Shown piece by piece: positions 3,350 through 58,059 of a stretch of 64,000 bases of DNA. The DNA lies in the IMG/VR virus record IMGVR_UViG_3300034377_000007, positions 1 to 64,000 of that record; one strand, written 5' to 3'. Each line of letters opens with the position of its first letter. The first letter of the stretch is position 1. A program made the translations under genes and the position numbers. The notes under the pieces are model-generated. The model was not told where the DNA came from, made no database searches, and saw nothing but the letters and a program-made list of their open reading frames with translations. The stretch comes from a virus.

Positions 3350-3613
3350 TTAAGCTGCTCTCTCATCGCTATGCCCGCCATAAACATAGACCGCATCGTC
3401 TCCCTGCTCGCTCTGTAACAGATAAGACTCAATGGTGTAGGCTGGCACGCCTGCTGAATGGTTGCCGTGCAGCCGAGCTGCTGCATTTCTCAGCGCGGTA
3501 TCGGCTGGCGTGACTTTATACTCGACTGAAACGGGAAGATTTATTTGAACATCGCCCCGCTTTACGGCGACCTCTTTCCCGTCTAGAGGCCCTCCGACTA
3601 GCTTAGCTTTCAT
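3350..3613 (-). CDS. Hypothetical protein (87 aa)
   Basis: There is an ATGA overlap with the portal stop at 3610-3613. Confidence 0.55.
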   Translation of the reverse strand: MKAKLVGGPLDGKEVAVKRGDVQINLPVSVEYKVTPADTALRNAAARLHGNHSAGVPAYTIESYLLQSEQGDDAVYVYGGHSDERAA

Positions 3614-6150: not shown

Positions 6151-6159
6151 TCGCCTACC

Positions 6160-6558
6160 TCATTCCATTTCGAGCTTTTTATCAACTAACGCTAACTCTT
6201 CCTCTGTGAGAGACTCGCGGTTATCCTGAAGCGTCTTTTCCTTCTTCTCCTGCGCTTCGCGGGCGCGGGCCTCAGAGGCAAGCCTGGCTCTCGCCTTTAT
6301 CCCTGCGCGGCCTACCGCCGGAATGCTCATGATCTCGGCTTCCGAGAGGTGAGAGACGCCGTTGCCCGTAACCACCGGCTTCGTATCGGGCTTAGGCAAG
6401 ACGCGATCAAGCAGGTCGGCCTGCCCGTTGTTCAAATCTCGGAGCAGTTGGGTTAGTGTGGTGACCTGTTCGCGTAGCGCCTCTTCTCTGGCTTCAGCAC
6501 GGACGCGGGCGTCATGTTCTGCTTCGTACTTTTCCTGTGAGACAAATCCAAGCATCAT
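6160..6558 (-). CDS. Hypothetical coiled-coil protein (132 aa)
   Basis: It is a charged helical ORF between terL and the portal, with an ATGA overlap to the upstream ORF at 6555-6558. Confidence 0.55.
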   Translation of the reverse strand: MMLGFVSQEKYEAEHDARVRAEAREEALREQVTTLTQLLRDLNNGQADLLDRVLPKPDTKPVVTGNGVSHLSEAEIMSIPAVGRAGIKARARLASEARAREAQEKKEKTLQDNRESLTEEELALVDKKLEME

Positions 6559-6908
6559 TCAAACCTCATCCCCGAATACTCTGCGATAACATCGCAGAGT
6601 TCTTTGCGTTGTGCTAACTCTTCGGTCCTCTGGCGGCACACCGCAATCATCATTCTGGCAATGTGCTTTCTCAACCAGGATAGTTCTTTCATTTCGGCAA
6701 TACGCTTTTGATATACAGCAATAAAGCATATCGCCACTCTGTATGTTTCCAGTTCTAGTTTTTCTCGCTCAAGGCGCTGCCGTCTGATAGAAGTGATTCT
6801 TGCTGCACGCGCCCGTATGGCGGGAAGACGAGCAATACGCATCTCCTCATCATAAAGCCCGTTATAAATATAGGGCGGCGTCCATTGCGTCTGAACAAAT
6901 TGGCTCAC
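6555..6908 (-). CDS. Hypothetical protein (117 aa)
   Basis: It is translationally coupled to terL through an overlap at 6905-6908. Confidence 0.55.
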   Translation of the reverse strand: MSQFVQTQWTPPYIYNGLYDEEMRIARLPAIRARAARITSIRRQRLEREKLELETYRVAICFIAVYQKRIAEMKELSWLRKHIARMMIAVCRQRTEELAQRKELCDVIAEYSGMRFE

Positions 6909-9289
6909 TTCCTCCTATACCTCCTATGGCTCACGGGCTGCCCAATCATCCTCCCGTACTGCTTAACAAGCTTCTCTTCTTCCTTACGCTCTTCCTGTTC
7001 AATCCGGCCAAGGGCGTGCTGCATGCCTGAGAGGAGTTCAGGGAACTCGGGAGTGCCGCGCTGGGACATGACCGCAACAGGCTTCAACTCGTCCGGCAGT
7101 TGGGAGATGCGGCGCTGTTCTCTGGTCAAGGCCGTAGCAGAGAGGGCGAAGTTGTAGAGCATCATGCGAACGCAATCTAAGGTCACGCCGCCATAGGGCT
7201 GCGGCTCCCCTTTGTCGTTATAGGCCCAGGTGATCGCCTCCTGCCGCATTGCGAGTTGTCCCGCATCGTTAAAGGGGGCGTCCAACTGAAGGCTGTCAAC
7301 CAGCAGATAACAGTGAGAAGCTTTCCATCTCGGATAAACGGGATGCCTCTGGTTCGGTATCTCCTGAAAATACCAGTTCGTCTCAGGTAGACCGGCTTCC
7401 GCGTCGTCCTCGAAGTATTGAAGATCAAGGCCGTACTTTTCTCCTGCGACCTGAACGATGTCGGAACTCCCCTTACTCAGCCAGATGAAACCGGCCTGCT
7501 CGACACCCTTCTCGCAGAACCTTTGCAGCGCGCGCCTGAGACCTTCCAAAATCTTCGCAGGCCCGTCCACGTACTCCCTGCCGGAAGCCACGACGAAGGC
7601 ACATTCTCCCAAGAAAGCGTCCTCCGCTGCGCGCGCTGTGATCGCCCAGCCGGAAGGATTGCTAGCATCTGAATCCACGCGGACGGCAGCGCTAACCTCC
7701 CAGTGTCCGGGGATTCGTGGGCCGAACCTTTCAGCGAATTCCATCCAACCGAACAGGCGGGGCTCGCTTTTGATGACCAAGCCTCTATAGAAAAGGTCTG
7801 TCAGGAACTTATGCCCGTCGCTCCCCGCGTCAATGATGTCCTTGGTCGAGCCGACGGGGAAGTTCTTATGCTCACTTTTGAAGGGCTTAAACCAGTCGGG
7901 CGTCGAGCCGTCCCTGTTGCGAACGATGAAGACCTTCCCCTTATTGAAATCCACGGAGTACGGATAAGCACGCATCTCCTTCGAGCCACTCACAGGATCA
8001 GTGAAGACCTGATACTCCCTGAGCATCTGGCGGAACTTGTAGGCAACGTCTTTACCTGCGGAGCCGGGGTCTTGCGGGGCATGAATTGCAACCAGCTTGC
8101 CGTCTCGCTCTGCGGTCGTCTTTTGCAGATTCTCGCGGTCAGCCGTGTTGACCTGCTTTCTCTCGCAGTCTTCAATGTAAATATTGGCAGAGGAGTCTAT
8201 ACCCATCCGAAGGCCGACGCTGTACGCACCTGCCCCCTCGGTCGCCGCGTTGTCCCAGGCTCTTACGCGGTGAAGAAGCTTAGGGACTTGATCAAAGTCA
8301 ATCTCCTTCAAGCACGAGACGTTGAAGAAGTCGCCCTCCTCAGAAGTAGGTCTGCCTTGAAACTGTGAATTCCAGACCTGAGCGTTCTTCTTCTGGCGCT
8401 CGTAGTAGACAGCCGTTCGACGTGGGGAAAGATACTCGCCCTTTTCACGGCCCAGTGGATCAGGAAATGATCTTCCAGATTCCTCGTCAACGTAATCCCC
8501 ATCGGCCTGAGCGGCGTAACGTAACAGTCCGAACTCGCCCGAGGCTATTGCACGTCCTCCCATGTCGTCCTGATGGTAACGGTGAAACATGATAAAGACG
8601 TTCCCGGTCTCAAGGATGCGGGGCTGCGCCGTCTCTTCGTAGAACCTCCATGTCTTGTCTCGGATCACCGGAGAGAGTGCTTCTTCGACCGATTTATAGG
8701 GGTCGTCAATGACGAGAGTATCAGCGCCCGTACCGACAAAGCCGGTCTGGAGTCCTAAAGCGATGAATGAGGCTTGCCCGTCGTTGACTTCCAACCTTGC
8801 GTTGGTTGACCACTCGACGGCTTTACTACGTTCTGGAATGTGCCCGGCGGGGTCACGGAATATCTCTTTATGCTCTGCTGACTGAAGAAGCCTCTTGACG
8901 ACGACGCTGAACCTCGCAGCGTGGAGGATGTTGTAGCAGGCCAGCCTGAATCTGTGCGTCGGGTCTTGCCCGAAGATGTAAGCAGGGTATGCCTGCGACA
9001 TGATGATGGTCTTGCCGAACTGCGGAGGGGCGGCGATGGTCTCACGCTTGCCGGGATGACGGAAAGCGTCTTCCAGACGAGCGCAGAGGTCTATCTGCCA
9101 GTCGTCAAGCTTGATGTGCTTGACGCGCTCGACGTACTCAGCCAATGTCAGGGTCGGCTTTTCGATAACGGTCTCCACACGTTCAGCGGCACGCCGACGG
9201 CGCTCGCGCTCTGCTTTTGCTCTCAGGCTGACGGGGATGTTACCCCCGCGCAAGCTGGTCAAGTTCTTCGTCGGTGAGTGTGCTAACAT
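6905..9289 (-). CDS. terL: Terminase large subunit with a long C-terminal extension (794 aa)
   Basis: It has a Walker A-like APPQFGKTIIMS and a Walker B-like TLVIDDPY. Nuclease-type acidic motifs are VRAWDNAAT, HAPQDPGSAGKD and DIIDAGSDG. It lies next to terS and the portal. Confidence 0.85.
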   Translation of the reverse strand: MLAHSPTKNLTSLRGGNIPVSLRAKAERERRRRAAERVETVIEKPTLTLAEYVERVKHIKLDDWQIDLCARLEDAFRHPGKRETIAAPPQFGKTIIMSQAYPAYIFGQDPTHRFRLACYNILHAARFSVVVKRLLQSAEHKEIFRDPAGHIPERSKAVEWSTNARLEVNDGQASFIALGLQTGFVGTGADTLVIDDPYKSVEEALSPVIRDKTWRFYEETAQPRILETGNVFIMFHRYHQDDMGGRAIASGEFGLLRYAAQADGDYVDEESGRSFPDPLGREKGEYLSPRRTAVYYERQKKNAQVWNSQFQGRPTSEEGDFFNVSCLKEIDFDQVPKLLHRVRAWDNAATEGAGAYSVGLRMGIDSSANIYIEDCERKQVNTADRENLQKTTAERDGKLVAIHAPQDPGSAGKDVAYKFRQMLREYQVFTDPVSGSKEMRAYPYSVDFNKGKVFIVRNRDGSTPDWFKPFKSEHKNFPVGSTKDIIDAGSDGHKFLTDLFYRGLVIKSEPRLFGWMEFAERFGPRIPGHWEVSAAVRVDSDASNPSGWAITARAAEDAFLGECAFVVASGREYVDGPAKILEGLRRALQRFCEKGVEQAGFIWLSKGSSDIVQVAGEKYGLDLQYFEDDAEAGLPETNWYFQEIPNQRHPVYPRWKASHCYLLVDSLQLDAPFNDAGQLAMRQEAITWAYNDKGEPQPYGGVTLDCVRMMLYNFALSATALTREQRRISQLPDELKPVAVMSQRGTPEFPELLSGMQHALGRIEQEERKEEEKLVKQYGRMIGQPVSHRRYRRK

Positions 9290-9668
9290 CTATCTTCAAT
9301 GTCGGGTTATAGAGCCCCGGTTTATGGGCTTTCAGTAGAAAGATGGTTAAGGTGTCGCTCTGCGCGCGTGCTCGTTCCCACGCAATCTCTTCAAGGCTCT
9401 CAACCGCTCTATCCTTCGCCTCATCGGCACGCTTGCGAAACTCCCCATAGTTCTCGTAATGGTCGTAGTAAGACCTACGCGGCACGCCTGCGGCCTCGCA
9501 CGCCGCCGAGATGTTGGCGTTCTGCTCGAAGGCCAAGATAAACGCATCATGCCAACCAAAATCAGGCTGCGGGACGGGCGGCTTATTGACCTCTTTTTTA
9601 GGTGTGCGAACAGGCGTTTTCTTCGCTCTGGCTTTCGCCGCCTTCTTTGTGGATTTCTTCGCGGCCAT
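9240..9668 (-). CDS. terS: Terminase small subunit
   Basis: It has a Lys-rich N-terminus, then an HTH-like NISAACEAAGVPRRSYYDHY segment typical of phage small terminases. It overlaps the terL start. Confidence 0.75.
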   Translation of the reverse strand: MAAKKSTKKAAKARAKKTPVRTPKKEVNKPPVPQPDFGWHDAFILAFEQNANISAACEAAGVPRRSYYDHYENYGEFRKRADEAKDRAVESLEEIAWERARAQSDTLTIFLLKAHKPGLYNPTLKIDVSTLTDEELDQLARG

Positions 9669-9818
9669 TTACCCTCTCCACCCGATCAGATAAACGGCCA
9701 CCAGACAGGCAAATGCCAGCCACTGAAACTGAAATCTACCCTTACCCGTGACGTTGCATCCCGCGAGGATGAAAAACCCAAGCGCGAGGGCGTACAAAAT
9801 AAGCGTTGCGATTGGCAT
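9669..9818 (-). CDS. Small membrane protein (49 aa)
   Basis: The sequence MPIATLILYALALGFFILAGC...WLAFACLVAVYLIGW has two hydrophobic segments. Its TAA stop abuts the terS ATG. It is below the track cut-off. Confidence 0.45.
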   Translation of the reverse strand: MPIATLILYALALGFFILAGCNVTGKGRFQFQWLAFACLVAVYLIGWRG

Positions 9819-9870
9819 AATCTCTACTCCTTCTTGTTAGCTAAGTCCGATACGCTGGTCGAACTCCTCC

Positions 9871-12800
9871 TTACTGATTTGCTCTCAATTCCTGCCGCCT
9901 GCGCTTCCTATCCTGAATCTTAGCTGCTCGTGCTCTCTTGATCTCCGCTCTCTCGGGATTGGCGGCGGCATCCAAAGCCTTACGGTCTTTCTCTTCCTGG
10001 CGCGCTTCCTTTTGCTCAAGGATGGGTTTAAGAGAGAGCTGCTCTGCCGGAGTAGCCAGACTGTAGACATGCCGCGCATCTTCGAGAGAAAGTAGTCGAA
10101 ACTTTTCTTGCAGATAGGTCTGACTTCTGGCTTTGATGATCGTCTCGCCCCTGTTCTCGTTGATGACGCCCGAGGCGACAAGAGGTATGACTTCACGAGA
10201 AACGTCCTCGCCACGCCGGGAGCGGGTTTTCAGTTCGTCAAGTTTGCGTAAAGTCTCCTGGTCGGGCTTCTTACTGGTCGCACGTTCCCCTTTGTAGACG
10301 AACCTCATTGCAAGCTTCTCCGCTCTGGTTTTCGGCTCGTCCGCTCGATCAGGATAGACGTTGGCGCTGAGTCCGACGGCTTCCGCTCCGGCCTGTGCAG
10401 CACCATAAGCAAAGCCCTCTTTTCTCCCGGTCTGGAAGAAGTTCTGATAAGTAATCGGAGTCAGCCTCGTGCCGATGGCCCCGTCTATTCCGTAATCTCC
10501 GAACCATGTGAAAGGCCGGCGGTCAAAGGTCTCCCCCGTGGCCGCTTCGATCATGAGGGAGGCGCGCGGGTCTGCGCCCGAGTGGAGCCAGCGGCCCATG
10601 ATGGAATCCGCCCCTTCGCCGATTACCTTATCAAAGGCCATCTGCCCTGTGACCTGTCCCGTCAATCCACGGTAAGCCTCCATCATCAGGCGGAGGACGG
10701 TTCTGGCATGTGTGGCGTTACCGGCTGAAAGATCAATACGAATCTTCCCGTATTTGAATTTCATCCAATCATCGTCGTCGGGGTCGAACAGGCTGATCAG
10801 CGCCTCGTTAGTAATCCACCCCAAAGTAGCTAGGGCTCCGAAAGTCGCAGCCATTGTCCCCCACCACCTTGCGGTATTCTTGTAGACGATTCTTCTGGCT
10901 TCGGGCGGCGCGTGCCAGAAGGAAGGGTTGAGAGGCAAGGTCAGGAATTGGAGACGAGAGACACGATACCGAGGCGCGAAGCCTATCATCCGTCCGAGTG
11001 CTAAATAAGCTTTCGTCGCTGCCGTGTTGTGGTCTCCGATGTCTGCCCTACCCGTGACGATGTTGATGAAACGTCCTACGTCCTTGTAGGCACGCGGGTT
11101 GTCTTTGTAGCCGACGCCTTTCGCTCTCAGCTCATCAATCCAGAGTTTTCCGAGTGCATGGCGGAGATGGTCTAAACCTCCGCCGAAGACCTGATCGGAC
11201 TTGCGCACGAACGTACCCAAGGTCTGCTTGATGATTGGAATTCTCTGTAGAACGTCGGCGTCCTCAAAGAACTCTTCGCCTTTATTCCCTCCGGCAAAAG
11301 AGAAATCTATGCCCATCCTCTGCATGAGCGGAAAGTCCGGGTCTTGCTCTATAACATCTATGTTTCGAGCAAACCCCGCGTCCCGGATGCTCGAAGTGGT
11401 GGCTTTGACGAACGCCGGGAATAGTTGAGGCTGCATGACTGAGGGGACGCCGCCCTGACGGAGCAAGTTCGAGACCTCGCCGGATGCCATCAAAGAGATT
11501 GGGATGCCTTTCGATGCGCGCCATGCTGTGCCGACGATACGTTGCGCAGGACTCTTTTTGAGGGCGTCCAACTCTCTCGCTACCCGCCTCCCGGCTTCCT
11601 GCCTGGCACGACGGGCTTCCTGTAGGGAAGCCAGAGCCTGGTCGCGCTCCGTCTCGGTTGAAGCCACATGCTTTTTAAGGGCTGCGGCCATCTCTCGGGA
11701 TGCGGTGACCTCTGCGCGGGCACGCTCTAAGACCTCCCCGCCGGACATGAAGGCCGTACGGGCTTCTGTAGCGGTCAATCCATGATCCGCCATCATCTCG
11801 GAGACGAGATGGCCGGGTGAGAGTCCGCGAGAGAGTTTGGTGGCCGCAATCGCATCTATGTGAGTCAAGGCGTTACGAGCAATAGCCCGGTCAAGCGCCG
11901 TTGGCTTCGGCGGGCCACTCTTCACGCCTTCTGAAAGCAGTGGGCCGGGCCTGCGCTTGAGGTCTTCACCAAGACGTGGACCTTCCTTTTTGCCCGTGGC
12001 ATCGGAGAGACGTGGGCCATACTTAGGGCCAAGCTTCGCGCGCAGTCCGGCGATTCTTCCCGGCTTCGGCCCCTTCTCAAACTCTCTTGCGGCCTTTTCA
12101 TGCTCAGCCTGTACGGCTGCGAGGCGCTTGCGCTCTTCTCTCTCTTCCCGGTAAATGTCCTCTAATTCATCGCGGCTCAGTTCTTCGTTGCCGGGGCGCT
12201 CCGATATTCTCCGGATAGCACGATCATGACGTGCCTGCCGAATGGTCTGGCGAGCGAGTTTCACCGATTTGGCGTGGATGCGGTCAAGGTCTGATGAGAT
12301 ACCGCGCCCGAAGTCCGAAAGCATGACTCTCTTCCATGCCGAGACGGAGAGGCGGCCCCTCTCTGCACGAAGGAGTTTTAATGCTCCGAGTTTGGCGAGA
12401 TTGTCTATAGTATCTTCGTCGAGAGGGCGGACGGACTCTTCCACCTGTGCCATCTTGAGAAGATGTGAGGAATTGGATTGCGCCGCACTTGTCGGCGCAT
12501 CACTCGGTTTTGAGCCTTCTGCAAATACTACGTTGGTTGGGTCAAATACAACGACATGGCTACCCCGCTCTTTTAGATGCTTACCAAGTTCTTTTGTGGG
12601 GTTGTAAATAACGCCGTCATAGCCGAGATTACGAAGGACTTTTTGGAGTTCCGCCGCGCCCCTCCAAGGTTTGAAACCCGCTCGAACGGCATACTCCACA
12701 GCCTGACCGGACAAAGGCTTTGAGGTATCCGCTTCGATGTGGCCCAAGTTACGTTCAATGTTTGACAATAAGTAGCTGTCACTCCCAACTGCGCGCTTCA

Positions 12801-15800
12801 AATCCTCTAAAGTGACCGTTGAGATATCTGGTCTAAATGGGTTTTCTAGGTTGGCAAATAATTTTAATACCCGCGCGCCCTCCTTCGACACATTTCTATC
12901 TGGATGATCTGTTGCATATTTAGAAGCATCCTTTTCACTGGTCGTCAGATAGACGGCGCGACCGTAAGAGGCTTCGGGGTCGGCCTTGGTCAAATCAAAC
13001 GCCTCTACCGCTCCCGTTGTTCCATGATAGAGCGTCACCGGGTTGCCACGTCTGTCCGTCAACTTTGTGTTGGGGTAAGCACGCTTGAACCGTGAGACTG
13101 CGTCTTCAATTTCCAGGCGGCCTGATGTCCCTGTTTGCCCTTCCGCCTCTTTTCCAGACATCAGTTCGGGCTGACGTTCGGACATGGGCGGCATTTTATC
13201 ACGACGCGCCATCTTGAGCGGCACGTCTCCCAGACCCAGAGACGCGCGCACGCTCGCCATCAAATCGGCCTCGTCAACAGCCAACAATTCAACGGCTTTA
13301 CGTTTGACGGAAATCCCGGAGCGCGGCTTCCTCGCCCTTTCAGGCAACAAGCCTTCGAGTTCTTTAAGACGATCTTCCCGGCGTTTCTCTTTATCACGAA
13401 GAGAGGCGAGGCGCTTCCTCAGAGTGTCAATCTCCGCCATCGTGAGAGCACCCTCTTCGGCCCATCCTATGAGTTTTCTTGACTGTTCTACTTCTGCGCG
13501 GGCTCCGCTCGCTTCCGCTCCCGCGACTGCCAGAACGGCAGAAGCGGATTCTAATTCTTCGCCCGCACGGTGAATTCGTGCAGCCTCTTTCTCCGATAGC
13601 TCTCTTCCTCTTTCACGCGCGACTCTGGCAGCCGTAGCCATCACGTCTTCTACGGAGTTATCTGCAATTTGGGCAGCCTGAATAGCCTGTCCTGCTTTGG
13701 TGAAGGCTGCGGCTAAAGTAGAGGCGAGGGCTTCCGCTCTGGCTCGTAGGGCGGAAGCTTCCTCGGCGTCTATCGTCGCAAACGCTTCGCTGAGCAACGC
13801 CCTTTGCATCATCTTGGACAATGCGATGTGCTCTGCTCCGAGCGCCTGGCCTGATTTTAGAAGGGATTCTGCGGCGTCAAAGCCTATTTGCTCAAGGAGA
13901 CGCTTACCGTCAAGAAGAGCGGCTTTGTTGGGATAGACTTCGTAGAGTTCGTCGGCGGCGCGAAGTCCCTGCGTGCGTAAGGTGGATGGAAGTGCGCGCG
14001 CTCTTACTTCCCGCGCTTCGCCTTCTGCTCCTGAAGGAACTTCTTTATCTCTTCCCTGCGTTCCGCCTCCGGGAGATTCTGCAACCCTTCTGCCAGCTTG
14101 ATCGCTTTCCCTAAGTGCCGACGATTCCCCGTCGGCTTGGGAGCTATTATAAGCCCTCTTCGCGTTTTCAATGGCTTGTCTGACATGGCTCTCCTGTCTC
14201 TTGAATTCACTGAAAGCATTAGGCCCGTTGCGCTCTATGAATGAACGCGTCCAGAGTTCGAGATAATTGGCGGCCTCTTCATCCGAGAGGCCGAGTTTAG
14301 CATAATCTCCCCCGGCTATCGTGGCCGCAGTCTCCTCAATAGCCAATCCACGAGAAGCATTCATGTACTCGCGGGTTGAGCTGTAGTAGTTTCGCCACGC
14401 GGAGACTGCCGGGTGCGATTCCAATTCTTCAATCTTCGTATGACGATCTTCGAGGACTCTTCCTTCCGCCCCGAGGTAGCTTCCGGCGTGGAACGATTCG
14501 TGTGGCTCCGCTGCTGCGGGAGCGTCTTTGAATTTAATAACCGCTGTGCCTTTTCCCTCTCGGGCGGCGTCAAGAAGATTCCCGGCAAGATCGTTTAAAG
14601 GTTTGACATCATCACTCGACCAACCCATCTCAGGGTCGCGCATGTCCCTGGCTGTTCCCTGCAAGGTCTTAACGATCATTCGCACCTGGGACGGCTCAAG
14701 GAATAGTCCGTCAAGGGTTGGAGCGTCTTCGAGGTCTTGAACTTTAGAGACCAGAGCGCGGCGTATGACTTCTCCACCTTCGGCGTTGACGGTGACGATG
14801 TTTTCTTCGCGTGCAGAAGAGGCTGACGGGATGAAGTCGGAGGCGTGTTCAATAGTGCGGAGGCGGCTTTGCTCAACGCTCGCCATCTTGAGAATGTTTG
14901 GGTCGGACAGCGAGAATGTGCCACGGTTGCCTGTGGCTGATTTGATCTGGTCAGGATGCAAGACCATCACACGGTCGCTATCAGCACTATAAACACCATC
15001 ATAGCCTTCGCTGATTAGCCTGCCCCTGATGGCGTCCTGCCATGTCTCGCCACTTTTTAGTGAGTAATTTCGGTATAGGTCTGCTTCTATGCGGTCAAGT
15101 GCCGTGGGCGTTATTGGTTTTTCAATCCTAACGAACACTGGCATGATAGTGCCATCGTTAGGCCGTCCAACCGCGCGAGCGTAATCGTTTCCAAGGGCAT
15201 ATTCTGCGGCCTTATCAGGATTCTTGGATAGGTATATGCCCTTACCCCAAGAGCCAGAATCAGTCTGCCCGAATTTAGATAAATCAAACTCAGTGAAATC
15301 AGCAAGCGTGCCGTGATAAACGACGAGCGGCCTGCCCTGCCCGTCAACTACCTTTGAGCCAGCAAACCACCGCTTAAATTCTGGGGTGTCCGTGATCTTC
15401 TTTATTGCTGCCTGTGCCATCTTGAGCGGGCCATCACCAAATAGACCGTTCAACTCGTTGGCAATTTCCTGTGTGCCAGGCTGTTCGATCAATCCACTTG
15501 GCAGCTTTCCTGTTCGATCAATCTCAGCAAGTAGTCTCTCTTGCTCAGAGGTCAAATCCTTTTCACCGACGAGCATCGGCTGGTTGACGTAATCGGAAAC
15601 AGGAGTGCTTGAGCGGTCAAGCTCCGCGAGCTTTGAGGGGGCGGGGAGGGTGTCGGCGAGCACCTCAGTATCAACGCGGTCAGCCGACTTGACGACCTGC
15701 GAAGCGAGGCGGCGTACGCGCGGTGGGACATCATCTTCCTGCAATCCCGCAAGGGTTGCGACGTTGTCCTTCCCCAGCGAGCGCTCTAGTTCCTTCTCTT

Positions 15801-18800
15801 TATAATAACGCTCGGCGTATTCTCTTTCCTCTCTGGTGGTGTTAGGTGGCGGCTCGAATCTCTCGACAGGGCGCGCGCCGCCTTCGGCAAACAAACCGCT
15901 CTCAGCTTCACGGAAGCCTAAGCCTCCCTGTTCGGGTTGGTAGTAGTCGGAGAGTTTACGGGATGATTGAGGCGCGCCGTTCTCGCCGAAGTCGAAGCTT
16001 GTATCCGCTTCCCCCTCCGGCTCCGTCTCGTCTATTACTTCTTCTGCAAATATTGCTGGTTCGCTTTGCGGAAGAAGAGCATCTGATGAGGCTTCATCCT
16101 GAGACGCGAGGCGAGCGAGCGCAATTTCTCTAAGCGAGCGGAGTGTGATGCCGATGAGTTCTTCGTCGAGTCCATAAGTTGCACCTATTGTAACAAGGTC
16201 ATCGTAGATTTGGGAAGATATTTCGCCCGTCCGTTCGATCTCCGCGAGCATCTCCGCAGCGTCTTTGTCCTGCATGAAACGCGCTTCACGCTCAAGCAGT
16301 TTTTCCTCTTCGGCTGAGACCTCGCCTAAAGCTGCTATCTCTTCAAAGATGGGGTTCTCTGTCGAGAGGTGGCTTGCTATGCCGCGCGCGTCGTTCTCTA
16401 CGGCTTCAAGGAATTTATCAGGGTCAACGTAGCCGTACTCAGCATCGGTCACGATGTCGGGGATGTCTCGTAGATACCCGGCATCATAAGCAGCCTGCGC
16501 CATCTGCTCGACGGTGAAGCGAGAATTTTTATTGACGAGGAATGGCTTGCCGAGTTCCTTCTGTGACAGACGTTTTAATTCTTCACCTTCGCCCTTGACG
16601 CCGCCAGATAATTGAACGAAGCGCCTGAGCGAATGCTTTTTAGGGTCGGGGGCTTGACGCTGGCGCGGCTTGCGGTTGGCAGCCTTATCAATCTTGGCCT
16701 GCCGTTTCCGCTCCGCTCTTGTTTGCCGGGAAGCGGTCAGAGGCTTCAAAGCTTGGGGTACTTCAATCGCAGGATGTGCTAAATCACTTTTCGCTGTGGG
16801 GGTAGATACGGGTTGCTGAGATTGCAAGGCCGTTCTCTTAGTTGCGAGTTCAGCTATTTCCTTGTCAACCAAAGCCAGCGTGGTTTTGTATCTGTTCGGG
16901 CGCGGAGATTGAAGCTGGCGCGCAAACATACTTTGCAGGTCTTTCTTTTGCCGCCCTAACTGCACTTGTCGGCTATCGAGCTTTGACAACTCGCGCTCGG
17001 CCACCTCTGTCTGAATCTGCGCCTCTGGCTTTAAAAGTTCCTTTAACTCTCGTTCAATAGCAAACACCCGTAACAGCGTGTTTTGCTGGTGACGTTTCTG
17101 CCGTTCAGAGGTGCGCGCCCACTGGTCAGGCAGCACTAAAGAGGGGTCAATGTAGTGTAGCCCTTGATATTCATGAATCAGTTCAGAGGCACGTTGACGC
17201 TTCTCCACCGGCAAAGCGTTGAACGCTTCTGGTCGTACCACCGTCTGACGTACTACGGCACTCTTATCAAGCGTTGGCTCTTTTATTGCAGTGGTGGGTG
17301 TAGTCTCCGCATTCTGCGACGCTTGCACCTGATCTTCTTCAGCCTGTGGAGCATTGGACTCCTTCGGGGCAATCCTGAGCCCCTGGCGTGTGCGGACGGG
17401 AACCATGATGCGGTTTCCCTCGCCTCGTCCGTTGGACTGTTGAACGATGTGCTCCGTGCCTTGATCGTCGGTTACTCGTACGCGATTCTGTCCTACTCCT
17501 GATTGATTGGAGCTTTCGGTGACGAGGCCAAAGTCAGCATGTCGCCATTGACGTGGGGGTTGAGTCTCAGAGGCGGCGGGTAGACTATCTGCGCTCCGTT
17601 CTCGTCCATCACCCACGCGAAGAGTATTCCCCTCGGCTGTTGGGCGTAGGAGTTCTGTCTGTCCAGCCTGCGGCCCATCTCCTCTTGGTGCGCCTGCACT
17701 AACTTGGAAATCTCTTCGCACTCCGCTTGCGCCATCCGAGCTACGAGCTTTGCCGCCTCTGCTATCTGTTCCTGCGTTAGACTCTGATAGGCCATTTTCC
17801 TCTACTCTCCTTTGTGCTGCTTCCTGCGCTGACAGTAATTCCTGATTCGCGGTCTGCGGGAATTGCCGCCGGTCAACTTCGGCCTGTGCAATAGCATCTG
17901 CCTCTGTTGGCACAATCGAAGTAGACAGTTCTCGCCCTTCCGCATCTTCTGTTCTGAGAGCTGGCCCAACACTTGTGTCTGTTACAGGTGCAACTTTTCC
18001 GATTAAAGGCTCGAAGCCGTTTTGAGCAACATAGTCCTGAATAGACTTGATACTTGTGAGCCCCATCGCCCGCGCTTTCGTCCTCTTGACGAGCAAGAGC
18101 CCATCGGGGACGGGAACGCGTATGAAGCCGGTCGTGCCGCCCGGTTCAGGTGAAGATTTCGGATAGAAGACGGCGACGCGGGGGGAGTTCTCGTCTCTAG
18201 CGCTTTCAAGCTGCGCTTCAATGGTCTGAGACGACTCGGGCACGGGCGCGGCGTCCGTCTCCGATGGCTGCGGCAGCAACGCCTCTTCCGCGCCGTTCAC
18301 CCGCGCCTCCGACGCTCCCTCCGTGCCTCTGGCCGCCGCCGGAGCGTCCCCTTCGGCGCTCTGCGTCCCTTTCCAGACGTAGACGGGTTGACCGTGGCGC
18401 ACGTCGCGCACGTAGCCTTCCGGTATCTCTATGGAATAGGTATCAATGATGCGTGCGTCTAAAGTAGCCCGGCGCTTGATTCCGGCCTGTATCGCTTTTA
18501 ACGCTTCGGGCTGAATCGCGGGACGGGCAGATTCGTCAACGGCGATTCGATCAAGCTTGACGAGGCGGACATTTCCATCGTCGCCGCGAACGCGGGAGAA
18601 TCCCTCGGGGGCTTCACCTTCCGCCCGTAACCTTTGCCCGTCTTCGGGCGTCAGTTCTTCGACCGTGCCGCCCCTGACCGTGCCCTGTGTATCGGTGAAG
18701 GTGACGGGCTGCGCAGGTTTCGGCTGCCGAACCGTTGAAGGTTGAGCATTCTCAGCCTGCCCTTCGACGCTGGTGGCGGGCGCTATCTGGTCAGGCAAGG

Positions 18801-20943
18801 CATCAGACGATAAACCCTCGTCCGCCGGTTCCGTGTTTGCCCGCGCCGCTTCGCTGGAACCTCTGTGAATACGCCCGCCGTGACTGCCCGTTGCTGCGCT
18901 GACGATGGCAGAGAAGAGGGCGCCGGTCGCGCCGCCCGCTCCCGCAGCCGAGTAGATGCCGTCCGTCCATTCGCGCGACTTGTCGTAACCGACGATCTTC
19001 CTGGCTATTACATTGCCCGCCGCCGTCTGGAAAAACTCCTGTACGCTCTCCTCGAAGGTCTCCTTGCCCATCTCGATGAGAGCTTTCTTGAGCGTGCCCC
19101 CGCTGATCCTATCCAGACGACGAAGCGCGGTGCCGACACCAGCCACCTCCGAGGCACCGACGCCGCCGTTTAAGAGAGCCGAGAGGGTCGCATCGTCCTC
19201 ATTTGCTCCATGCCGCTTGGCATCCCTGTAGCCTTCCGACATCCCCATCGTGACGCCGAGCAGGGCCGGGACGACGTATGCCGATTTACTGATGAGCCCG
19301 CCGGATGCGAACCCGACGGCAGAGCCGATGGCCTGCGGAATCGTGGAGGCGATAAACTCCTCCTGCCTTGCGGGGTCGGTCGGGTAATGACGCCGCGCAG
19401 CTTCGCGGATAGCCTGCGCCCATTGGGCCGTGACCAAATCCGCCGCCTGGCTGGCGTCCCTGTAGGATTGCAGACCTTCGGGCAAGTGCCTGTCTATGTT
19501 GTAGGCAGTGATGGCTATAGCATCAAGAACCCCTGCCGGCATCTCGGCCACACCGGACAGGAACTGCCCGAACGCGTGCGCGCTGGTCGAAATGGGCTCA
19601 CTACCCACTCGTGCCCTGATACGCGGAGCGGAAGCTCGCGCCCGTGTCTCCTCTTCCGACTCGATGCGCCCTTCCGGCGAGAGCGTGCCGCCCTGCTGGA
19701 TATGGGCGATCTGAGCTGGTTGGAGGCCGAGGCGGCGCAGGGCTTCGGGTCTGACCTCTCGAATCTCCCCGCCTGAACCTAAGCCCCGCTCGCGTAGACG
19801 CTCCCCGACGGGCGCAAGTCCCGGCCCCTGTCGGTTCATTTCCTGTTCGATGGCTGCACGACGCTGCATGTAAGCATCGTCCGAACGGCGCACGTCGGCG
19901 ATGCTCGGCCTCTCTCTTTGCAGGCGCTCATATTCAGCTTTCGCCGCTGCGTATTCCTGCGCCTGCTGGTCGGCAAAGGTTGGGGCGAGCAGGCCGCCGA
20001 ACTCGGGGTCAACCGGCCTCTCGGTCAACTTCCGCCGTGCACGCTCCATGCGTGTGCGCGCTCTCTCCACCTGTCGCCTGCGTGTGCGCTGTGCGGCTCT
20101 CTGCCCCCGTCTCTGCTGCATTAGTGAGACCGCCTGCTGGTTGACCTGATCTATGGCAAGCGGATGATCGCGCCATCTCGCCTGTTCGGCTAACAGCTCG
20201 GGACTTGCAGGGGAGAACTCGTCTCCTTCACGCTCAGCCGGGGGTATGCGAGGGGACTGCACAGCCCGGGTTTCAGGCTGTGCAGTTTGCGTAGCAGAGG
20301 CGGTCGGCGGGACGCTGTTTAGCCGGATGAGTTCTTCGGGAGTGATCTTGTAAGTCCTGGCTATCTGCTCTAACGTATCCCCTTCGTGGGCGATGATATG
20401 GATGACTCCTTCGCCTGCCCAGTTCGGAACGGCAACCTCTTCTCCGCTTTTGAAGATGCGCGTGGGGGCCTGCTGCGTAGCGAAGTCAATCTCGGGCCTC
20501 GGCGTGAGCGACTGTCCGATCAAAGTAGGGCTGTAAGTCGGCATCGCCGCGCCGAGGCCCGGCCCGCGCCCTCCCGGCGGGCCGACGTGGATATGAGGAG
20601 CGGTGGATTTGCCCGGAACGGCTTTATCCCAAACCGTGTGCGGTATGCCCTGCCCCTTCAGCCATTCGGCGATCCACCGTACCTGCTCGGGTGTTTCACC
20701 CTGATTGATGCCGATGTCGAATCGCCCCTCGTGGGGGATGCCCATGCGGCGGTGGGTCTCGTCGTTGCCGAAGGAAGAGACGCGGATGTCCTTGCCGAAG
20801 ACGGAGCGATAGGCTTGGTTGAGGCGGTCGCGCACGTCCGCGGGGTCGAATGAGAGGCCCGGGGTGCTGCGGGCAGGCTTCGCCACGTCCGAGAAATCAA
20901 TCTCTTCCGGCCTGGCTGCATCTGAGAAGTCGATAACAGACAT
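9871..20943 (-). CDS. Giant multidomain polyvalent-type protein (3690 aa), probably virion-packaged and injected
   Basis: It is an uninterrupted 11-kb ORF upstream of terS. The domains seen by eye are listed as separate features below. Confidence 0.9.
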   Translation of the reverse strand: MSVIDFSDAARPEEIDFSDVAKPARSTPGLSFDPADVRDRLNQAYRSVFGKDIRVSSFGNDETHRRMGIPHEGRFDIGINQGETPEQVRWIAEWLKGQGIPHTVWDKAVPGKSTAPHIHVGPPGGRGPGLGAAMPTYSPTLIGQSLTPRPEIDFATQQAPTRIFKSGEEVAVPNWAGEGVIHIIAHEGDTLEQIARTYKITPEELIRLNSVPPTASATQTAQPETRAVQSPRIPPAEREGDEFSPASPELLAEQARWRDHPLAIDQVNQQAVSLMQQRRGQRAAQRTRRRQVERARTRMERARRKLTERPVDPEFGGLLAPTFADQQAQEYAAAKAEYERLQRERPSIADVRRSDDAYMQRRAAIEQEMNRQGPGLAPVGERLRERGLGSGGEIREVRPEALRRLGLQPAQIAHIQQGGTLSPEGRIESEEETRARASAPRIRARVGSEPISTSAHAFGQFLSGVAEMPAGVLDAIAITAYNIDRHLPEGLQSYRDASQAADLVTAQWAQAIREAARRHYPTDPARQEEFIASTIPQAIGSAVGFASGGLISKSAYVVPALLGVTMGMSEGYRDAKRHGANEDDATLSALLNGGVGASEVAGVGTALRRLDRISGGTLKKALIEMGKETFEESVQEFFQTAAGNVIARKIVGYDKSREWTDGIYSAAGAGGATGALFSAIVSAATGSHGGRIHRGSSEAARANTEPADEGLSSDALPDQIAPATSVEGQAENAQPSTVRQPKPAQPVTFTDTQGTVRGGTVEELTPEDGQRLRAEGEAPEGFSRVRGDDGNVRLVKLDRIAVDESARPAIQPEALKAIQAGIKRRATLDARIIDTYSIEIPEGYVRDVRHGQPVYVWKGTQSAEGDAPAAARGTEGASEARVNGAEEALLPQPSETDAAPVPESSQTIEAQLESARDENSPRVAVFYPKSSPEPGGTTGFIRVPVPDGLLLVKRTKARAMGLTSIKSIQDYVAQNGFEPLIGKVAPVTDTSVGPALRTEDAEGRELSTSIVPTEADAIAQAEVDRRQFPQTANQELLSAQEAAQRRVEENGLSESNAGTDSRGGKARSSDGASGVRRDFQVSAGAPRGDGPQAGQTELLRPTAEGNTLRVGDGRERSADSLPAASETQPPRQWRHADFGLVTESSNQSGVGQNRVRVTDDQGTEHIVQQSNGRGEGNRIMVPVRTRQGLRIAPKESNAPQAEEDQVQASQNAETTPTTAIKEPTLDKSAVVRQTVVRPEAFNALPVEKRQRASELIHEYQGLHYIDPSLVLPDQWARTSERQKRHQQNTLLRVFAIERELKELLKPEAQIQTEVAERELSKLDSRQVQLGRQKKDLQSMFARQLQSPRPNRYKTTLALVDKEIAELATKRTALQSQQPVSTPTAKSDLAHPAIEVPQALKPLTASRQTRAERKRQAKIDKAANRKPRQRQAPDPKKHSLRRFVQLSGGVKGEGEELKRLSQKELGKPFLVNKNSRFTVEQMAQAAYDAGYLRDIPDIVTDAEYGYVDPDKFLEAVENDARGIASHLSTENPIFEEIAALGEVSAEEEKLLEREARFMQDKDAAEMLAEIERTGEISSQIYDDLVTIGATYGLDEELIGITLRSLREIALARLASQDEASSDALLPQSEPAIFAEEVIDETEPEGEADTSFDFGENGAPQSSRKLSDYYQPEQGGLGFREAESGLFAEGGARPVERFEPPPNTTREEREYAERYYKEKELERSLGKDNVATLAGLQEDDVPPRVRRLASQVVKSADRVDTEVLADTLPAPSKLAELDRSSTPVSDYVNQPMLVGEKDLTSEQERLLAEIDRTGKLPSGLIEQPGTQEIANELNGLFGDGPLKMAQAAIKKITDTPEFKRWFAGSKVVDGQGRPLVVYHGTLADFTEFDLSKFGQTDSGSWGKGIYLSKNPDKAAEYALGNDYARAVGRPNDGTIMPVFVRIEKPITPTALDRIEADLYRNYSLKSGETWQDAIRGRLISEGYDGVYSADSDRVMVLHPDQIKSATGNRGTFSLSDPNILKMASVEQSRLRTIEHASDFIPSASSAREENIVTVNAEGGEVIRRALVSKVQDLEDAPTLDGLFLEPSQVRMIVKTLQGTARDMRDPEMGWSSDDVKPLNDLAGNLLDAAREGKGTAVIKFKDAPAAAEPHESFHAGSYLGAEGRVLEDRHTKIEELESHPAVSAWRNYYSSTREYMNASRGLAIEETAATIAGGDYAKLGLSDEEAANYLELWTRSFIERNGPNAFSEFKRQESHVRQAIENAKRAYNSSQADGESSALRESDQAGRRVAESPGGGTQGRDKEVPSGAEGEAREVRARALPSTLRTQGLRAADELYEVYPNKAALLDGKRLLEQIGFDAAESLLKSGQALGAEHIALSKMMQRALLSEAFATIDAEEASALRARAEALASTLAAAFTKAGQAIQAAQIADNSVEDVMATAARVARERGRELSEKEAARIHRAGEELESASAVLAVAGAEASGARAEVEQSRKLIGWAEEGALTMAEIDTLRKRLASLRDKEKRREDRLKELEGLLPERARKPRSGISVKRKAVELLAVDEADLMASVRASLGLGDVPLKMARRDKMPPMSERQPELMSGKEAEGQTGTSGRLEIEDAVSRFKRAYPNTKLTDRRGNPVTLYHGTTGAVEAFDLTKADPEASYGRAVYLTTSEKDASKYATDHPDRNVSKEGARVLKLFANLENPFRPDISTVTLEDLKRAVGSDSYLLSNIERNLGHIEADTSKPLSGQAVEYAVRAGFKPWRGAAELQKVLRNLGYDGVIYNPTKELGKHLKERGSHVVVFDPTNVVFAEGSKPSDAPTSAAQSNSSHLLKMAQVEESVRPLDEDTIDNLAKLGALKLLRAERGRLSVSAWKRVMLSDFGRGISSDLDRIHAKSVKLARQTIRQARHDRAIRRISERPGNEELSRDELEDIYREEREERKRLAAVQAEHEKAAREFEKGPKPGRIAGLRAKLGPKYGPRLSDATGKKEGPRLGEDLKRRPGPLLSEGVKSGPPKPTALDRAIARNALTHIDAIAATKLSRGLSPGHLVSEMMADHGLTATEARTAFMSGGEVLERARAEVTASREMAAALKKHVASTETERDQALASLQEARRARQEAGRRVARELDALKKSPAQRIVGTAWRASKGIPISLMASGEVSNLLRQGGVPSVMQPQLFPAFVKATTSSIRDAGFARNIDVIEQDPDFPLMQRMGIDFSFAGGNKGEEFFEDADVLQRIPIIKQTLGTFVRKSDQVFGGGLDHLRHALGKLWIDELRAKGVGYKDNPRAYKDVGRFINIVTGRADIGDHNTAATKAYLALGRMIGFAPRYRVSRLQFLTLPLNPSFWHAPPEARRIVYKNTARWWGTMAATFGALATLGWITNEALISLFDPDDDDWMKFKYGKIRIDLSAGNATHARTVLRLMMEAYRGLTGQVTGQMAFDKVIGEGADSIMGRWLHSGADPRASLMIEAATGETFDRRPFTWFGDYGIDGAIGTRLTPITYQNFFQTGRKEGFAYGAAQAGAEAVGLSANVYPDRADEPKTRAEKLAMRFVYKGERATSKKPDQETLRKLDELKTRSRRGEDVSREVIPLVASGVINENRGETIIKARSQTYLQEKFRLLSLEDARHVYSLATPAEQLSLKPILEQKEARQEEKDRKALDAAANPERAEIKRARAAKIQDRKRRRQELRANQ
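10790..10866 (-). other. Hydrophobic (TM-like) segment near the C-terminus of the giant protein
   Basis: The segment is WWGTMAATFGALATLGWITNEALISLF. Confidence 0.4.
12449..13218 (-). other. ART-like module 2 of the giant protein
   Basis: RRGNPVTLYHGT...YGRAVYLT...ASKYA...GYDGVIYN...HVVVFDP is a paralogous copy of module 1. Confidence 0.55.
14488..14502 (-). other. HEXXH (HESFH) zincin-type metal-binding motif in the giant protein
   Basis: PHESFHAG lies between the two ART-like modules. Confidence 0.5.
14882..15426 (-). other. ART-like module 1 of the giant protein
   Basis: FKRWFAGSKVVDGQGRPLVVYHGT...WGKGIYLS...AAEYA...GYDGVY...QIKSATGNRGTF resembles the ADP-ribosyltransferase-like domain of phage polyvalent proteins, as I remember it. 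Confidence 0.6.
20308..20403 (-). other. LysM-like peptidoglycan-binding motif of the giant protein
   Basis: HEGDTLEQIARTYKITPEELIRLNSV matches the LysM core (GDTL..IA..Y.....L...N). Confidence 0.65.
20581..20781 (-). other. LAS-type zinc peptidase-like segment of the giant protein
   Basis: The pattern IPHEGRFDIGI ... APHIHVG fits the H-x(n)-D ... H-x-H metal-ligand pattern of LAS / M15-type cell-wall peptidases. Confidence 0.5.
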
Positions 20944-20958
20944 GAGAAATGACTGGCC

Positions 20959-22089
20959 CTAATCCTGAATCGTGTAACCCTGCCGGACGGCTTCTTTCGC
21001 CACATCCTCCGGCAGCATGTTCAGAGCCTTCGCCTTCTGCACGACGGCATCCGAGCTGATCGTTTTTCCCGCGCCAGGATATCTCTGGGAGAACTGGTCT
21101 CTCGACATCTGCACGCGGTCTCTCTGGATGGCGGCAGACTGGGCGGCTATCTCCTTCTGCGCCTCTATTCTCCACCTGGCGATGCGCTCACGAGACTCTC
21201 TCGCCGCAGCCTGCGTCTCCTGGTTCATCGCTTGTGGTGTCGTGGTCGTTAATTGCCCATTCCCCCCGGGAGCGTTAACGGGCGCGGACTGGTCGCCTCT
21301 GAGCACATACCACGCTCCCGTGCGGGCGTCCTGTTTATAAGTAGCCTTTTCACCCTTCTTCTTGGCGATGACTGGTAGACCAAGCTCCCTCAAATCCGCA
21401 ACGGTCCGAGCATTCCCGGGGTCGTCCGGGTCGAACTCTTCGAGGTCGTTGATGACGGAGGCGACGGCGCGACGGCGTTGATCGAGGGCGCGGGCCCTGT
21501 CGGCTTCCTCCTTCCTACGCTGCTCCGTGTCCCGGTAGGTCGGCATATCCCGCTGGTTCGCAGCCTGCGCTCGTTTCAATTCCAGCTCGGCTTCGTTCTG
21601 CTCGCTCTCCTGGCTCATCTTCGATATCCCGGCCTGGCGCGCGATGTCCCGATTGTGGGCGATCTGTTCATCTGCCGCCGGGTTCAGGAGCCCCATAAGA
21701 GCGTTACTCAGCCTCTGGCCTATCAAGTTCCCCAGGGAATCGGACGGTCGTACAGGCTGGCCCGCCATCGCAAGCGCAGACATCCCGCGACCGTTCACGT
21801 CCACGACCCCCTGGCTCATAAGCTGCTGCAATCGCTCGGTCGGGTTCAGCGGGTTCGCTTCCCCCGGTGTTCCTGTGACGAGTCGAGGGCGCGTTGCTGC
21901 GTAAGTCGGACGAGGAGAAACCGTCTCCTGCTCAAGTGCTGGGTCTACGTCGAAGACCGGAGGGGCATAGGTCGGGTAATCCGTACGGGGTGCTGTGGTA
22001 TCATCTTCTGCCGTATAAGTGTAGCTAGGCACGATGCGCGGCAGTGGCACGTAGCTTGGGCCTCTTCTTCTATGCTGTGTAGATGTCAT
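20959..22089 (-). CDS. Hypothetical protein (376 aa), Pro-rich N-terminus and coiled-coil centre
   Basis: It is a complete ORF directly upstream of the giant gene and could be an internal virion or ejection protein on position alone. Confidence 0.6.
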   Translation of the reverse strand: MTSTQHRRRGPSYVPLPRIVPSYTYTAEDDTTAPRTDYPTYAPPVFDVDPALEQETVSPRPTYAATRPRLVTGTPGEANPLNPTERLQQLMSQGVVDVNGRGMSALAMAGQPVRPSDSLGNLIGQRLSNALMGLLNPAADEQIAHNRDIARQAGISKMSQESEQNEAELELKRAQAANQRDMPTYRDTEQRRKEEADRARALDQRRRAVASVINDLEEFDPDDPGNARTVADLRELGLPVIAKKKGEKATYKQDARTGAWYVLRGDQSAPVNAPGGNGQLTTTTPQAMNQETQAAARESRERIARWRIEAQKEIAAQSAAIQRDRVQMSRDQFSQRYPGAGKTISSDAVVQKAKALNMLPEDVAKEAVRQGYTIQD

Positions 22090-29398: not shown

Positions 29399-29451
29399 AT
29401 CAAACCTCCTGCCCAAACAACACAAAAGCCCGCACCGTTTGGGCGCTATGT

Positions 29452-29566
29452 TGCACAAATCTTGCGACGGACTTGTGGACACAGACGCCCGCAACGATGC
29501 AGGCTTTTCTATTAAGATTTGTGCAGACCTTCTCCGAAAACAAGAAAGCCCACAAGTCCGTCGCAA
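29452..29566. repeat. Two interlocked perfect inverted repeats upstream of the ParB-nuclease-like gene
   Basis: A is TGCACAAATCTT (29452-29463) and A' is AAGATTTGTGCA (29514-29525). B is TTGCGACGGACTTGTGG (29462-29478) and B' is CCACAAGTCCGTCGCAA (29550-29566). The order is A-B...A'...B'. Confidence 0.7.
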
Positions 29567-29602
29567 TTCCAATCACAGCACAAAACACTTTCTCGTGGCT
29601 GA

Positions 29603-53149: not shown

Positions 53150-53165
53150 TTTATCACCTCTTTCA

Positions 53166-53459: not shown

Positions 53460-53481
53460 TGCCACCTCCGTTAGCTGCAAA

Positions 53482-55092: not shown

Positions 55093-55154
55093 CGTTCCCT
55101 CTATCCTGAAATCGGGCAAAGAAAAAGCGCCGCTACTCCGTCAGCAGTAAATCT

Positions 55155-57828: not shown

Positions 57829-57855
57829 TCAAACTCCGTGCTATAATTCATGCCC

Positions 57856-58056: not shown

Positions 58057-58059
58057 GGC

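Follow-up and report, generated by a model that had tools for sequence, protein, structure and literature searches.

Few anti-host weapons of phages and conjugative elements are as large and as widespread as polyvalent proteins. As described by Iyer, Burroughs, Anand, de Souza, and Aravind (2017; PMC5512222), they are giant single chains that join unrelated effectors, including ADP-ribosyltransferases (ARTs) of the ART-PolyVal family, to an embedded HExxH motif. Autoprocessing by their embedded metallopeptidases has been proposed, and DdrB and DarA of phage P1 are known to be cleaved (PMC5512222). For the maturation of chains of 3,000-6,000 residues into working enzymes, this autoprocessing proposal is so far what exists, without defined sites: the 2017 paper describes no junction peptide and no defined cargo slots ('cleavage site' appears solely in a reference title), and in the papers searched we found neither a junction peptide (DIRFS and similar), nor defined cargo slots, nor anything specific on a demonstrated cleavage of polyvalent proteins. 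Here, we analyze a giant protein encoded by a viral stretch of 64,000 nucleotides (IMG/VR record IMGVR_UViG_3300034377_000007, positions 1 to 64,000; hereafter the window), in which the four-residue peptide Leu-Lys-Met-Ala (LKMA) stands at every border between modules. The giant protein shares with the described class the single chain, the unrelated effectors, the ART-PolyVal modules, and the embedded HExxH motif, and its relatives carry domains known from that class (MuF_C, InPase, Dam, SNF2, SLT, M23, and Topo IB), whereas its HExxH part is not recognizable as the Pfam MPTase-PolyVal type. The polyvalent class and the autoprocessing idea were known already; new here are the four-residue code, its conservation, the equivalence of LKMA with PLFS and NPDIRFS peptides, and the exact insertions and deletions of cargo slots.

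In viral polyproteins and MARTX toxins, exchangeable effector modules are joined by flexible linkers that hold short, uniform recognition peptides, the motif is lineage-specific, and the protease is internal. There, the protease has been identified and its products observed, and the host and the delivery route (here the phage particle) are different. Prohead proteases also recognize a short consensus: T4 gp21 cuts at L/I-x-E (including in the ART Alt), phiKZ gp175 cuts at S/A/G-x-E, and capsid and scaffold proteins share the consensus. Their substrates are similar to the giant protein in that packaged enzymes, including an ART (T4 Alt; PMC5512222), carry a short consensus, but differ in that LKMA is found in no other open reading frame (ORF) here. 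The virion RNA polymerase (vRNAP) of phage N4 is similar in layout, as a virion-delivered protein of ~3,500 amino acids (aa) with a cargo enzyme, a HExxH domain (C1), and a large helical C2 domain (PMC13434306), but it has no detectable sequence similarity to the giant protein, and no LKMA-type repeats are known for it.

The giant ORF lies at 9871-20943 on the minus strand, as do all of its features given below, and encodes 3,690 aa (ORF list and translation). It has the feature by which polyvalent proteins are recognized, namely several unrelated domains on one very large chain (a LysM domain and two ART-PolyVal modules), and the gene is directly upstream of those for the small (9240-9668) and large (6905-9289) terminase subunits (PHROGs). 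The product is a polyvalent protein that is probably delivered by the virion. We counted exactly four copies of the 11-mer CTCAAGATGGC in the window, all on the minus strand (at 12449, 13208, 14882, and 15416), where 0.05 copies are expected and where 0 out of 100 shuffles reached four. All four copies are in frame in the giant ORF and encode GPLKMAQ (aa 1840), NILKMAS (aa 2018), VPLKMAR (aa 2576), and HLLKMAQ (aa 2829). The amino-acid composition of the giant protein predicts 0.025 LKMA peptides against the four observed, and beyond these the protein contains no further LKM, KMA, or L[KR]MA. Chance or codon bias as the source of the repeat is ruled out by these expected counts, the shuffles, and the codon-usage estimate given below. 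An earlier note on this DNA had reported four LKMA peptides at these positions, encoded by one shared 11-mer, which bracket two ART-like modules at spacings of 178, 558, and 253 aa with a HESFH motif in the middle stretch. This description was borne out exactly: both bracketed segments contain ART-PolyVal (PF18760), and HESFH lies at aa 2148-2152. The note had also raised the possibility that LKMA is as frequent in unrelated proteins of this genome, and this is not the case, since a six-frame scan of the sizeable ORFs across the 64 kb found it in none of the others. It is likewise absent from the other ORFs of the relatives' loci.

The four sites divide the protein into scaffold parts and cargo. 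The N-region (15427-20943, aa 1-1839) ends in a helix and a Gly-rich linker (...ELNGLFGDGP), followed by junction 1 (GDGP-LKMA-Q; 15415-15426, aa 1840-1843) at the border with cargo slot 1. Cargo module 1, an ART-PolyVal domain with YHGT, GIYLS, and GYDG motifs (14893-15414; Pfam match at aa 1867-2010), is separated by junction 2 (DPNI-LKMA-S; 14881-14892, aa 2018-2021) from the MID segment (13219-14880, aa 2022-2575). MID is a conserved scaffold part that contains the HESFH motif (14488-14502), a candidate metal site of a possible peptidase, and that again ends in a helix and a linker (...VRASLGLGDVP). Junction 3 (GDVP-LKMA-R; 13207-13218, aa 2576-2579) forms the border between MID and cargo slot 2, which holds cargo module 2, the second ART-PolyVal (12460-13206). 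Junction 4 (SSHL-LKMA-Q; 12448-12459, aa 2829-2832) joins this module to the C-region (9874-12447, aa 2833-3690), a conserved C-terminal scaffold common to many giant polyvalent proteins, for which we found no match in Pfam, PDB, or GenBank phages. GenBank phages matched the giant protein through the ART module only (megablast and tblastn).

The assignment of the two cargo modules is supported by a PF18760 score of 143.1 bits (gathering cutoff 31.2) over two stretches, the best at aa 1867-2010. ART-PolyVal domains have an H-Y-D configuration, with His in strand 1, Tyr in strand 2, and Asp in strand 5 (PMC5512222). Both modules contain the corresponding active-site motifs (YHGT at aa 1876 and 2639, GIYLS at 1902 and AVYLT at 2663, GYDG at 1980 and 2774), and in a 25-sequence alignment His53 and Asp158 of the module 1 fragment are invariant columns, with Tyr or Phe in the strand-2 Tyr column. 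Module 1 is predicted to have an ADP-ribosyltransferase fold: its AlphaFold2 (AF2) model has a mean predicted local distance difference test (pLDDT) score of 78.6, with a core above 90, and Foldseek matched it to tankyrase/PARP catalytic domains with a probability of 0.95-1.0 at modest template modeling (TM) scores of 0.33-0.44. The top Foldseek match, the pre-ejectosome of cyanophage A4, was not used because of its poor TM score and root-mean-square deviation of 18.8, and its paper holds no processing data. In another protein, P0002 (1,746 aa), nearly the whole chain consists of nine tandem ART-PolyVal modules, and the module tails vary (NPDIRHS, NPDIRYR, NPNILHR, SPNILFS, NPDIAFR, HPGMLRR, and so on). 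The two modules of the giant protein are only 30% identical over 91 aa and thus do not stem from a recent duplication. Since the motif is also present at borders without an ART, LKMA flanks as the residue of a recent ART tandem duplication are ruled out.

We then compared the giant protein with its relatives, which come from metagenomes. A word-indexed protein search found only P0001 and P0086 as close relatives, and back-translated pattern searches of viral, genome, and metagenome collections for close relatives gave nothing useful. The family was opened up by a full HMMER scan with a C-region profile, which found 2,639 proteins at E<=1e-3, many of them 3,000-6,000 aa long. MID is 61% identical to that of P0001 (encoded on contig L002) and 25-49% identical to those of 18 other giant relatives; the C-terminal 858 aa are 55% identical to P0086, and aa 1469-1847 of the N-region are 46% identical to L002, with further N-region pieces (N2 and N3) also matching relatives. 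Segment mapping shows that the relatives' common scaffold consists of the N-region, a MID part with PHExxH, and the C-region. LKMA, or more generally L-x-M-A/S, is kept at the borders between N-region and MID and between MID and C-region in at least 12 relatives (25-61% identical). The motif was counted in 12 proteins (L002, P0086, P0088-P0096, and P0111), which contain 31 matches, and only two of these (LQMS in P0094 and P0095) lie inside the C-region and not at a border. Pro directly precedes the motif in 21 out of 31 instances, and Arg or Gln usually follows it. The 10 residues upstream are 65% Gly, Ala, Ser, Pro, Thr, Asp, or Asn (46% overall), and the motif forms an invariant island in otherwise freely varying Gly/Ser/Pro linkers. 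A conserved amphipathic helix precedes it (...L.a.vR..LG.G.P-LKMA), and MID ends in ...G.(G/S)P-LKMA in the relatives. Specifically, P0089, P0090, P0092, and P0096 have one LKMA within about 10 residues of the MID start and another between MID and the C-region; P0088 has LKMA at the border of MID and C-region, and P0086 directly before the C-region. Variants are seen in P0095 (LKMA, LFMA, LKMA), P0094 (LKMA, LRMA, LMMS, LMMA), and P0091 (LQMS, LNMA, LMMA). The homologous N-region ends in the same motif in L002 (GGAP-LKMA), P0096, and P0095. Conservation at the domain borders of homologs, which the earlier note had named as a check, is therefore found at homologous borders.

While these borders stay, the contents of the slots differ among relatives, which makes both borders sites where exchangeable modules are inserted, and every such module closes with a junction peptide of its own. 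The same giant gene is present on L002, where at least three frameshifts interrupt it. In its slot 1, GGAP-LKMA is followed by a MuF_C domain (PF18819, E 2e-22) that ends in ...NGAM-KMA and leads into MID, and its slot 2 is empty, with a single AAGP-LKMA joining MID to the C-region. The 253-aa ART module 2 is thus exactly absent from L002: the left flank corresponds to site 3 of the window and the right flank to site 4. In P0086, an unrelated 158-aa domain is followed by PAAP-LKMA and the C-region; slot 2 of P0094, flanked by PLMMS and PLMMA, holds a Dam-type methylase together with a ParB-like part; and slot 2 of P0111 holds a non-orthologous ART between MID and the C-region, with LKMA on either side. 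ARTs in the same slot of different relatives are not mutual closest matches. Further domains in the relatives include SLT, 2'-5' RNA ligase, helicases, Eco57I-type methylase, Topo IB, InPase, and M23 peptidase. Such slots explain how very different enzymes (ART, MuF_C, Dam, helicases, and topoisomerase) can be exchanged in frame among related phages. Two observations on the slot carriers may be added. In the closest relative, L002 (1-6071), gene calling yields three genes in place of the single giant one; the frame can be traced across them by homology, and the cause is either an assembly error or gene decay. The slot-2 domain of P0086 (aa 1-158, ~150 aa; ..GHM(I/V)MPNGKG...ISNHWEVA(V/I)DAGYLP...LLKKGW..) has no Pfam match; it is also found in P0098 (697-881), P0146, P0153, and P0203, and stand-alone proteins of 190-250 aa exist.

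To see whether the junction peptide extends beyond this clade, we examined 85 ART-PolyVal proteins, in which the domain ends in ...IKSATGNRGTFDP.NPDI(R/T/L)(F/Y/K/M)(S/A/M). Site 2 of the giant protein (GNRGTFSLSDPNILKMA) aligns with the canonical tail NPDIRFS residue for residue. Many ART modules are preceded by a G.PLFS(R) peptide, some 8-10 aa ahead of TDTPEFK.WF, and site 1 (GDGPLKMAQAAIKKITDTPEFKRWF) aligns with this peptide. Tail 4-mers are identical in 28% of within-protein pairs but in 1.5% of pairs between proteins (concordance from 50 pairs), and individual proteins repeat their own tail: L[YF]MPA six times in P0027, IRFSR five times in P0003, SITAS four times in P0006, RIDRL three times in P0028, NILSQ three times in P0009, LKSA twice in P0104, and LKR(A/I) in P0103. 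Judging from these alignments, LKMA is the local, lineage-specific form of a putative general junction peptide whose third residue is hydrophobic and whose fourth is small. The peptide suggests a rule by which modules can be delimited in unannotated giant proteins and by which phage-delivered cargo can be engineered. A further example of agreement within a protein, L(T/A)QGE, is found in the cultured Caulobacter phage Jess A (L001, MK942064), where a 2,039-aa 'lysis protein' (4258-10377) has an ART-PolyVal bracketed by SLTQGE and LLAQGE, with a HEAGH metallopeptidase-like domain immediately after it. As a cultured phage, Jess A could serve to test junction cleavage.

We propose that the LKMA peptides are protease recognition sites of a modular polyprotein, a reading toward which we consider the evidence to lean by a modest degree. 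We favor it because one short peptide is present at every border, is conserved despite hypervariable surroundings, follows Gly/Ser/Pro linkers, tends to co-vary within a protein, and is kept at empty slots. The three parts of the fixed scaffold, the N-region with its cell-wall-binding LysM domain, the HExxH-containing MID, and the large C-region, are joined at two borders, each made up of an amphipathic helix, a Gly/Ser-rich linker ending in Pro, and L-K-M-A. An added enzyme module ends in the peptide too and so contributes a second copy, and an ART in both slots gives the four LKMA sites seen here. In the proposed processing, a protease would cut the polyprotein at or next to LKMA into N-region, ART1, MID, ART2, and C-region, probably between the hydrophobic third residue (Met here; Phe or Tyr elsewhere) and the small fourth residue (Ala or Ser). 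Cleavage may take place after assembly or after delivery into the host, thereby freeing the cargo enzymes. The earlier note had likewise read LKMA as a set of processing sites, cut by the embedded zincin or by a prohead protease. The part on the sites stands, as the peptides are non-random, lie exactly at module borders, are conserved, and are absent elsewhere in the genome; the part on either enzyme is not supported as stated.

The leading but weak candidate for the protease is the conserved HExxH part of MID, which would act in cis. The H-E-x-x-H motif is kept in 14 out of 18 relatives as (A/G)(L/I/V)PHE..H(Q/A)G, with PEExFH in three and PHGYLH in one. A conserved strand, GTAV(V), lies just before it, and an invariant Glu (E183 of the MID alignment, motif VEEtAA) about 55 aa downstream, an order of motifs that would match the layout of a minimal zincin. 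In the giant protein, Pro immediately precedes the first His of HESFH, and the stretch upstream is variable and of low complexity. Tentatively, we extend the processing-site reading to a lineage-tunable junction code (helix, G-x-G/S-P, L-x-(M/F)-(A/S)) that would be read after delivery by a built-in, unclassified HExxH peptidase in MID, with the junctions doubling as docking points for in-frame cassette swaps; we regard this fuller version as possible but doubtful. If true, the junction code and the MID peptidase would constitute a general mechanism for the maturation and diversification of polyvalent proteins. In any case, the conserved peptide and the slots give exact residues and a cis-acting HExxH candidate to examine.

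Several findings weigh against proteolysis, and against MID as its agent in particular. MID has no match in Pfam, either for the window protein or for any of the 18 relatives, and none among PDB sequence profiles. Its single-sequence AF2 model is unusable (pLDDT 51), and in hhalign an MPTase-like alignment (Jess A and ten other proteins) matched it with a probability of 24% over 21 columns, covering only the strand and HExxH. In P0094 (PHGYLH), Gly replaces the catalytic Glu, and in the three relatives with PEExFH, Glu replaces the first His; P0094 nevertheless has four junction motifs, and the other three also keep theirs. No match to a protease family was found among the window ORFs scanned. 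Furthermore, the two borders of P0088 differ (IRFS and LKMA), so the agreement within proteins is a tendency and not a rule; junction 1 is part of a helix in the AF2 model (pLDDT of about 64); and the N4 vRNAP, with its HExxH domain and large helical C-domain, is reported to be packaged uncut (PMC5512222; PMC13434306). Given the missing Pfam and PDB matches, the 24% in hhalign, and the lost catalytic Glu of P0094, an embedded zincin as put forward in the earlier note is not supported as stated.

Other candidates for the cutting enzyme were also considered. The suggested prohead protease finds no support either, as none was recognized in the window and LKMA does not occur on the capsid side: a scan of the window ORFs against PHROGs and Pfam named no prohead protease, capsid, or portal, although the structural genes are too divergent to be named and this negative is therefore no proof. 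A head-maturation protease that also trims capsid proteins is disfavored by the absence of LKMA from the other ORFs here and in the relatives' loci. In part of the family, a trans-acting protease is possible, namely the product of a small PhageMetallopep gene (PF18894) whose position in L009 (15131-15697) and L013 (16637-17260) is between the genes for the giant protein and the small terminase subunit; neither the window nor L002 has a homologue of it. A host protease is also a possible cutting enzyme. The conserved gene upstream of the giant gene (20959-22089) was considered as the protease and set aside, having no PDB profile match.

The alternative that survives best is that the conserved peptide is not cut at all and that the intact chain acts, with the peptide serving as a docking motif (for a chaperone, the portal or ejection apparatus, or a neighboring domain), as a cap, or as an element of linker geometry. 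This would agree with the N4 polymerase, which has a comparable layout of HExxH and large C-domain and is packaged and ejected intact, with the predicted helix at junction 1 and the amphipathic helix that always precedes the element, and with the fact that no protease was found. However, the same peptide follows unrelated modules (ART, MuF_C, Dam, and an unknown domain) and is kept at empty slots, and it lies in Gly/Ser/Pro-rich, poorly modeled linkers; junction 2, for instance, is a coil with a pLDDT of about 50 outside the confident ART core. In addition, the pattern of variation, in which the third residue is hydrophobic, the fourth is small, and the peptides tend to agree within a protein, is typical of protease sites. 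We therefore consider an uncut peptide rather unlikely, though a serious competitor of the processing-site reading.

A second alternative places the function in the DNA, with the identical 11-16 nucleotides (nt) providing microhomology for the insertion, deletion, or swapping of cassettes, and the copies being scars or substrates of these events. Given LKMA, identical codon choice for Leu and for Lys across the four sites has a probability of about 0.0015 under the codon usage of this gene. Junctions 4 and 1 share a 16-nt direct repeat, CCTGTGCCATCTTGAG (coding strand CTCAAGATGGCACAGG), at 12444-12459 and 15411-15426, and junctions 1 and 3 share CCGCTCAAGATGGC. Furthermore, the repeat forms the exact boundaries of the ART2 indel between the window and L002, and the slots of the relatives hold non-orthologous cargo. 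Recombination at the 16-nt repeat could delete the whole ART1-MID-ART2 block. Against a primary role of the DNA, the relatives conserve the peptide but vary its codons, even within one gene. The Leu codons of the junction peptide are CTC, CTC, and CTG in L002 (with ATG AAA), CTC in L005 (CTC AAA), CTC/TTG in L009, CTG, CTC, and CTC in L010, CTC/CTG in L011, and CTA/CTT in L012, and the Lys codon is AAG or AAA, so that synonymous variation is found both within and between relatives. Synonymous variation is also seen in unrelated polyvalent proteins, in the codons of their junction peptides ITAS, IRFSR, and L[YF]MPA. Because the relatives vary the codons in this way, selection acts on the peptide and not on the DNA, and we rejected a DNA-level signal as the primary function; the stress that the earlier note had laid on one shared 11-mer was misplaced. 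Moreover, 11 nt are very short for homologous recombination, and empty slots retain the peptide. Overall, we judge a DNA-level role improbable. The DNA identity within this gene may have arisen when cassettes were recently exchanged, or through gene conversion, at the junctions, and recombination at the repeat may be a real but secondary by-product and not the function.

It is very improbable that the ATGs within LKMA are internal translation starts that give separate MA... proteins (ART1, MID, ART2, and C-region): although the close clade shows Met and a following Ala or Ser without exception, and proteins often begin with Met-Ala, each ATG follows ..CTCAAG with no Shine-Dalgarno sequence at a usable distance (as the earlier note had rightly remarked), whereas many window genes have GAGG or GGAG, Leu at -2 and Pro at -3 are conserved in the protein, Met is missing from more distant homologous junctions (LKSA, LKRA, LFSR, IRFS, and ITAS), and none of the 150 relatives among the matches listed begins at a junction.

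Some further features of the window concern the surroundings of these modules. The identical giant protein is present in a public protein collection, on a 68,184-nt metagenomic contig, and the window is therefore most of a phage-like genome; it contains no tRNA genes. The N-terminus of the giant protein opens with a short tandem repeat, VIDFSDAARP / EIDFSDVAKP (20311-20943, aa 1-211), within the part of the N-region that extends to the LysM domain (aa 187-211, 20311-20385; Pfam). Ahead of LysM, a His/Asp-rich stretch (HRRMGIPHEGRFD...APHIHV) resembles a cell-wall peptidase by eye, and it has no Pfam match. Directly upstream of the giant gene, a 376-aa gene (20959-22089, minus strand) occupies the same position in all five relatives' loci compared (382-426 aa, 20-47% identical). 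It has no match in Pfam, PHROG, or PDB, and its product may be an obligate partner of the giant protein.

Between 27848 and 32893 on the minus strand lies a block of replication and modification genes, encoding an O-like replication initiator (27848-28675), a ParB-like protein (28676-29572), two DNA methyltransferases (30192-30935 and 31113-31790), and a helix-turn-helix protein (31919-32893). The names assigned by PHROGs and Pfam in the window scan were limited to terminase, methylases, ParB, replication initiator, and a Laminin_G_3 protein, and the structural module of this phage is very divergent. Most ORFs (up to 846 aa) in a co-oriented run at 49933-63835 and 3610-6150, both on the minus strand, have no PHROG or Pfam match; the exceptions are Laminin_G_3 at 51744-52487 and a weak match to DUF1580 at 56116-57828.

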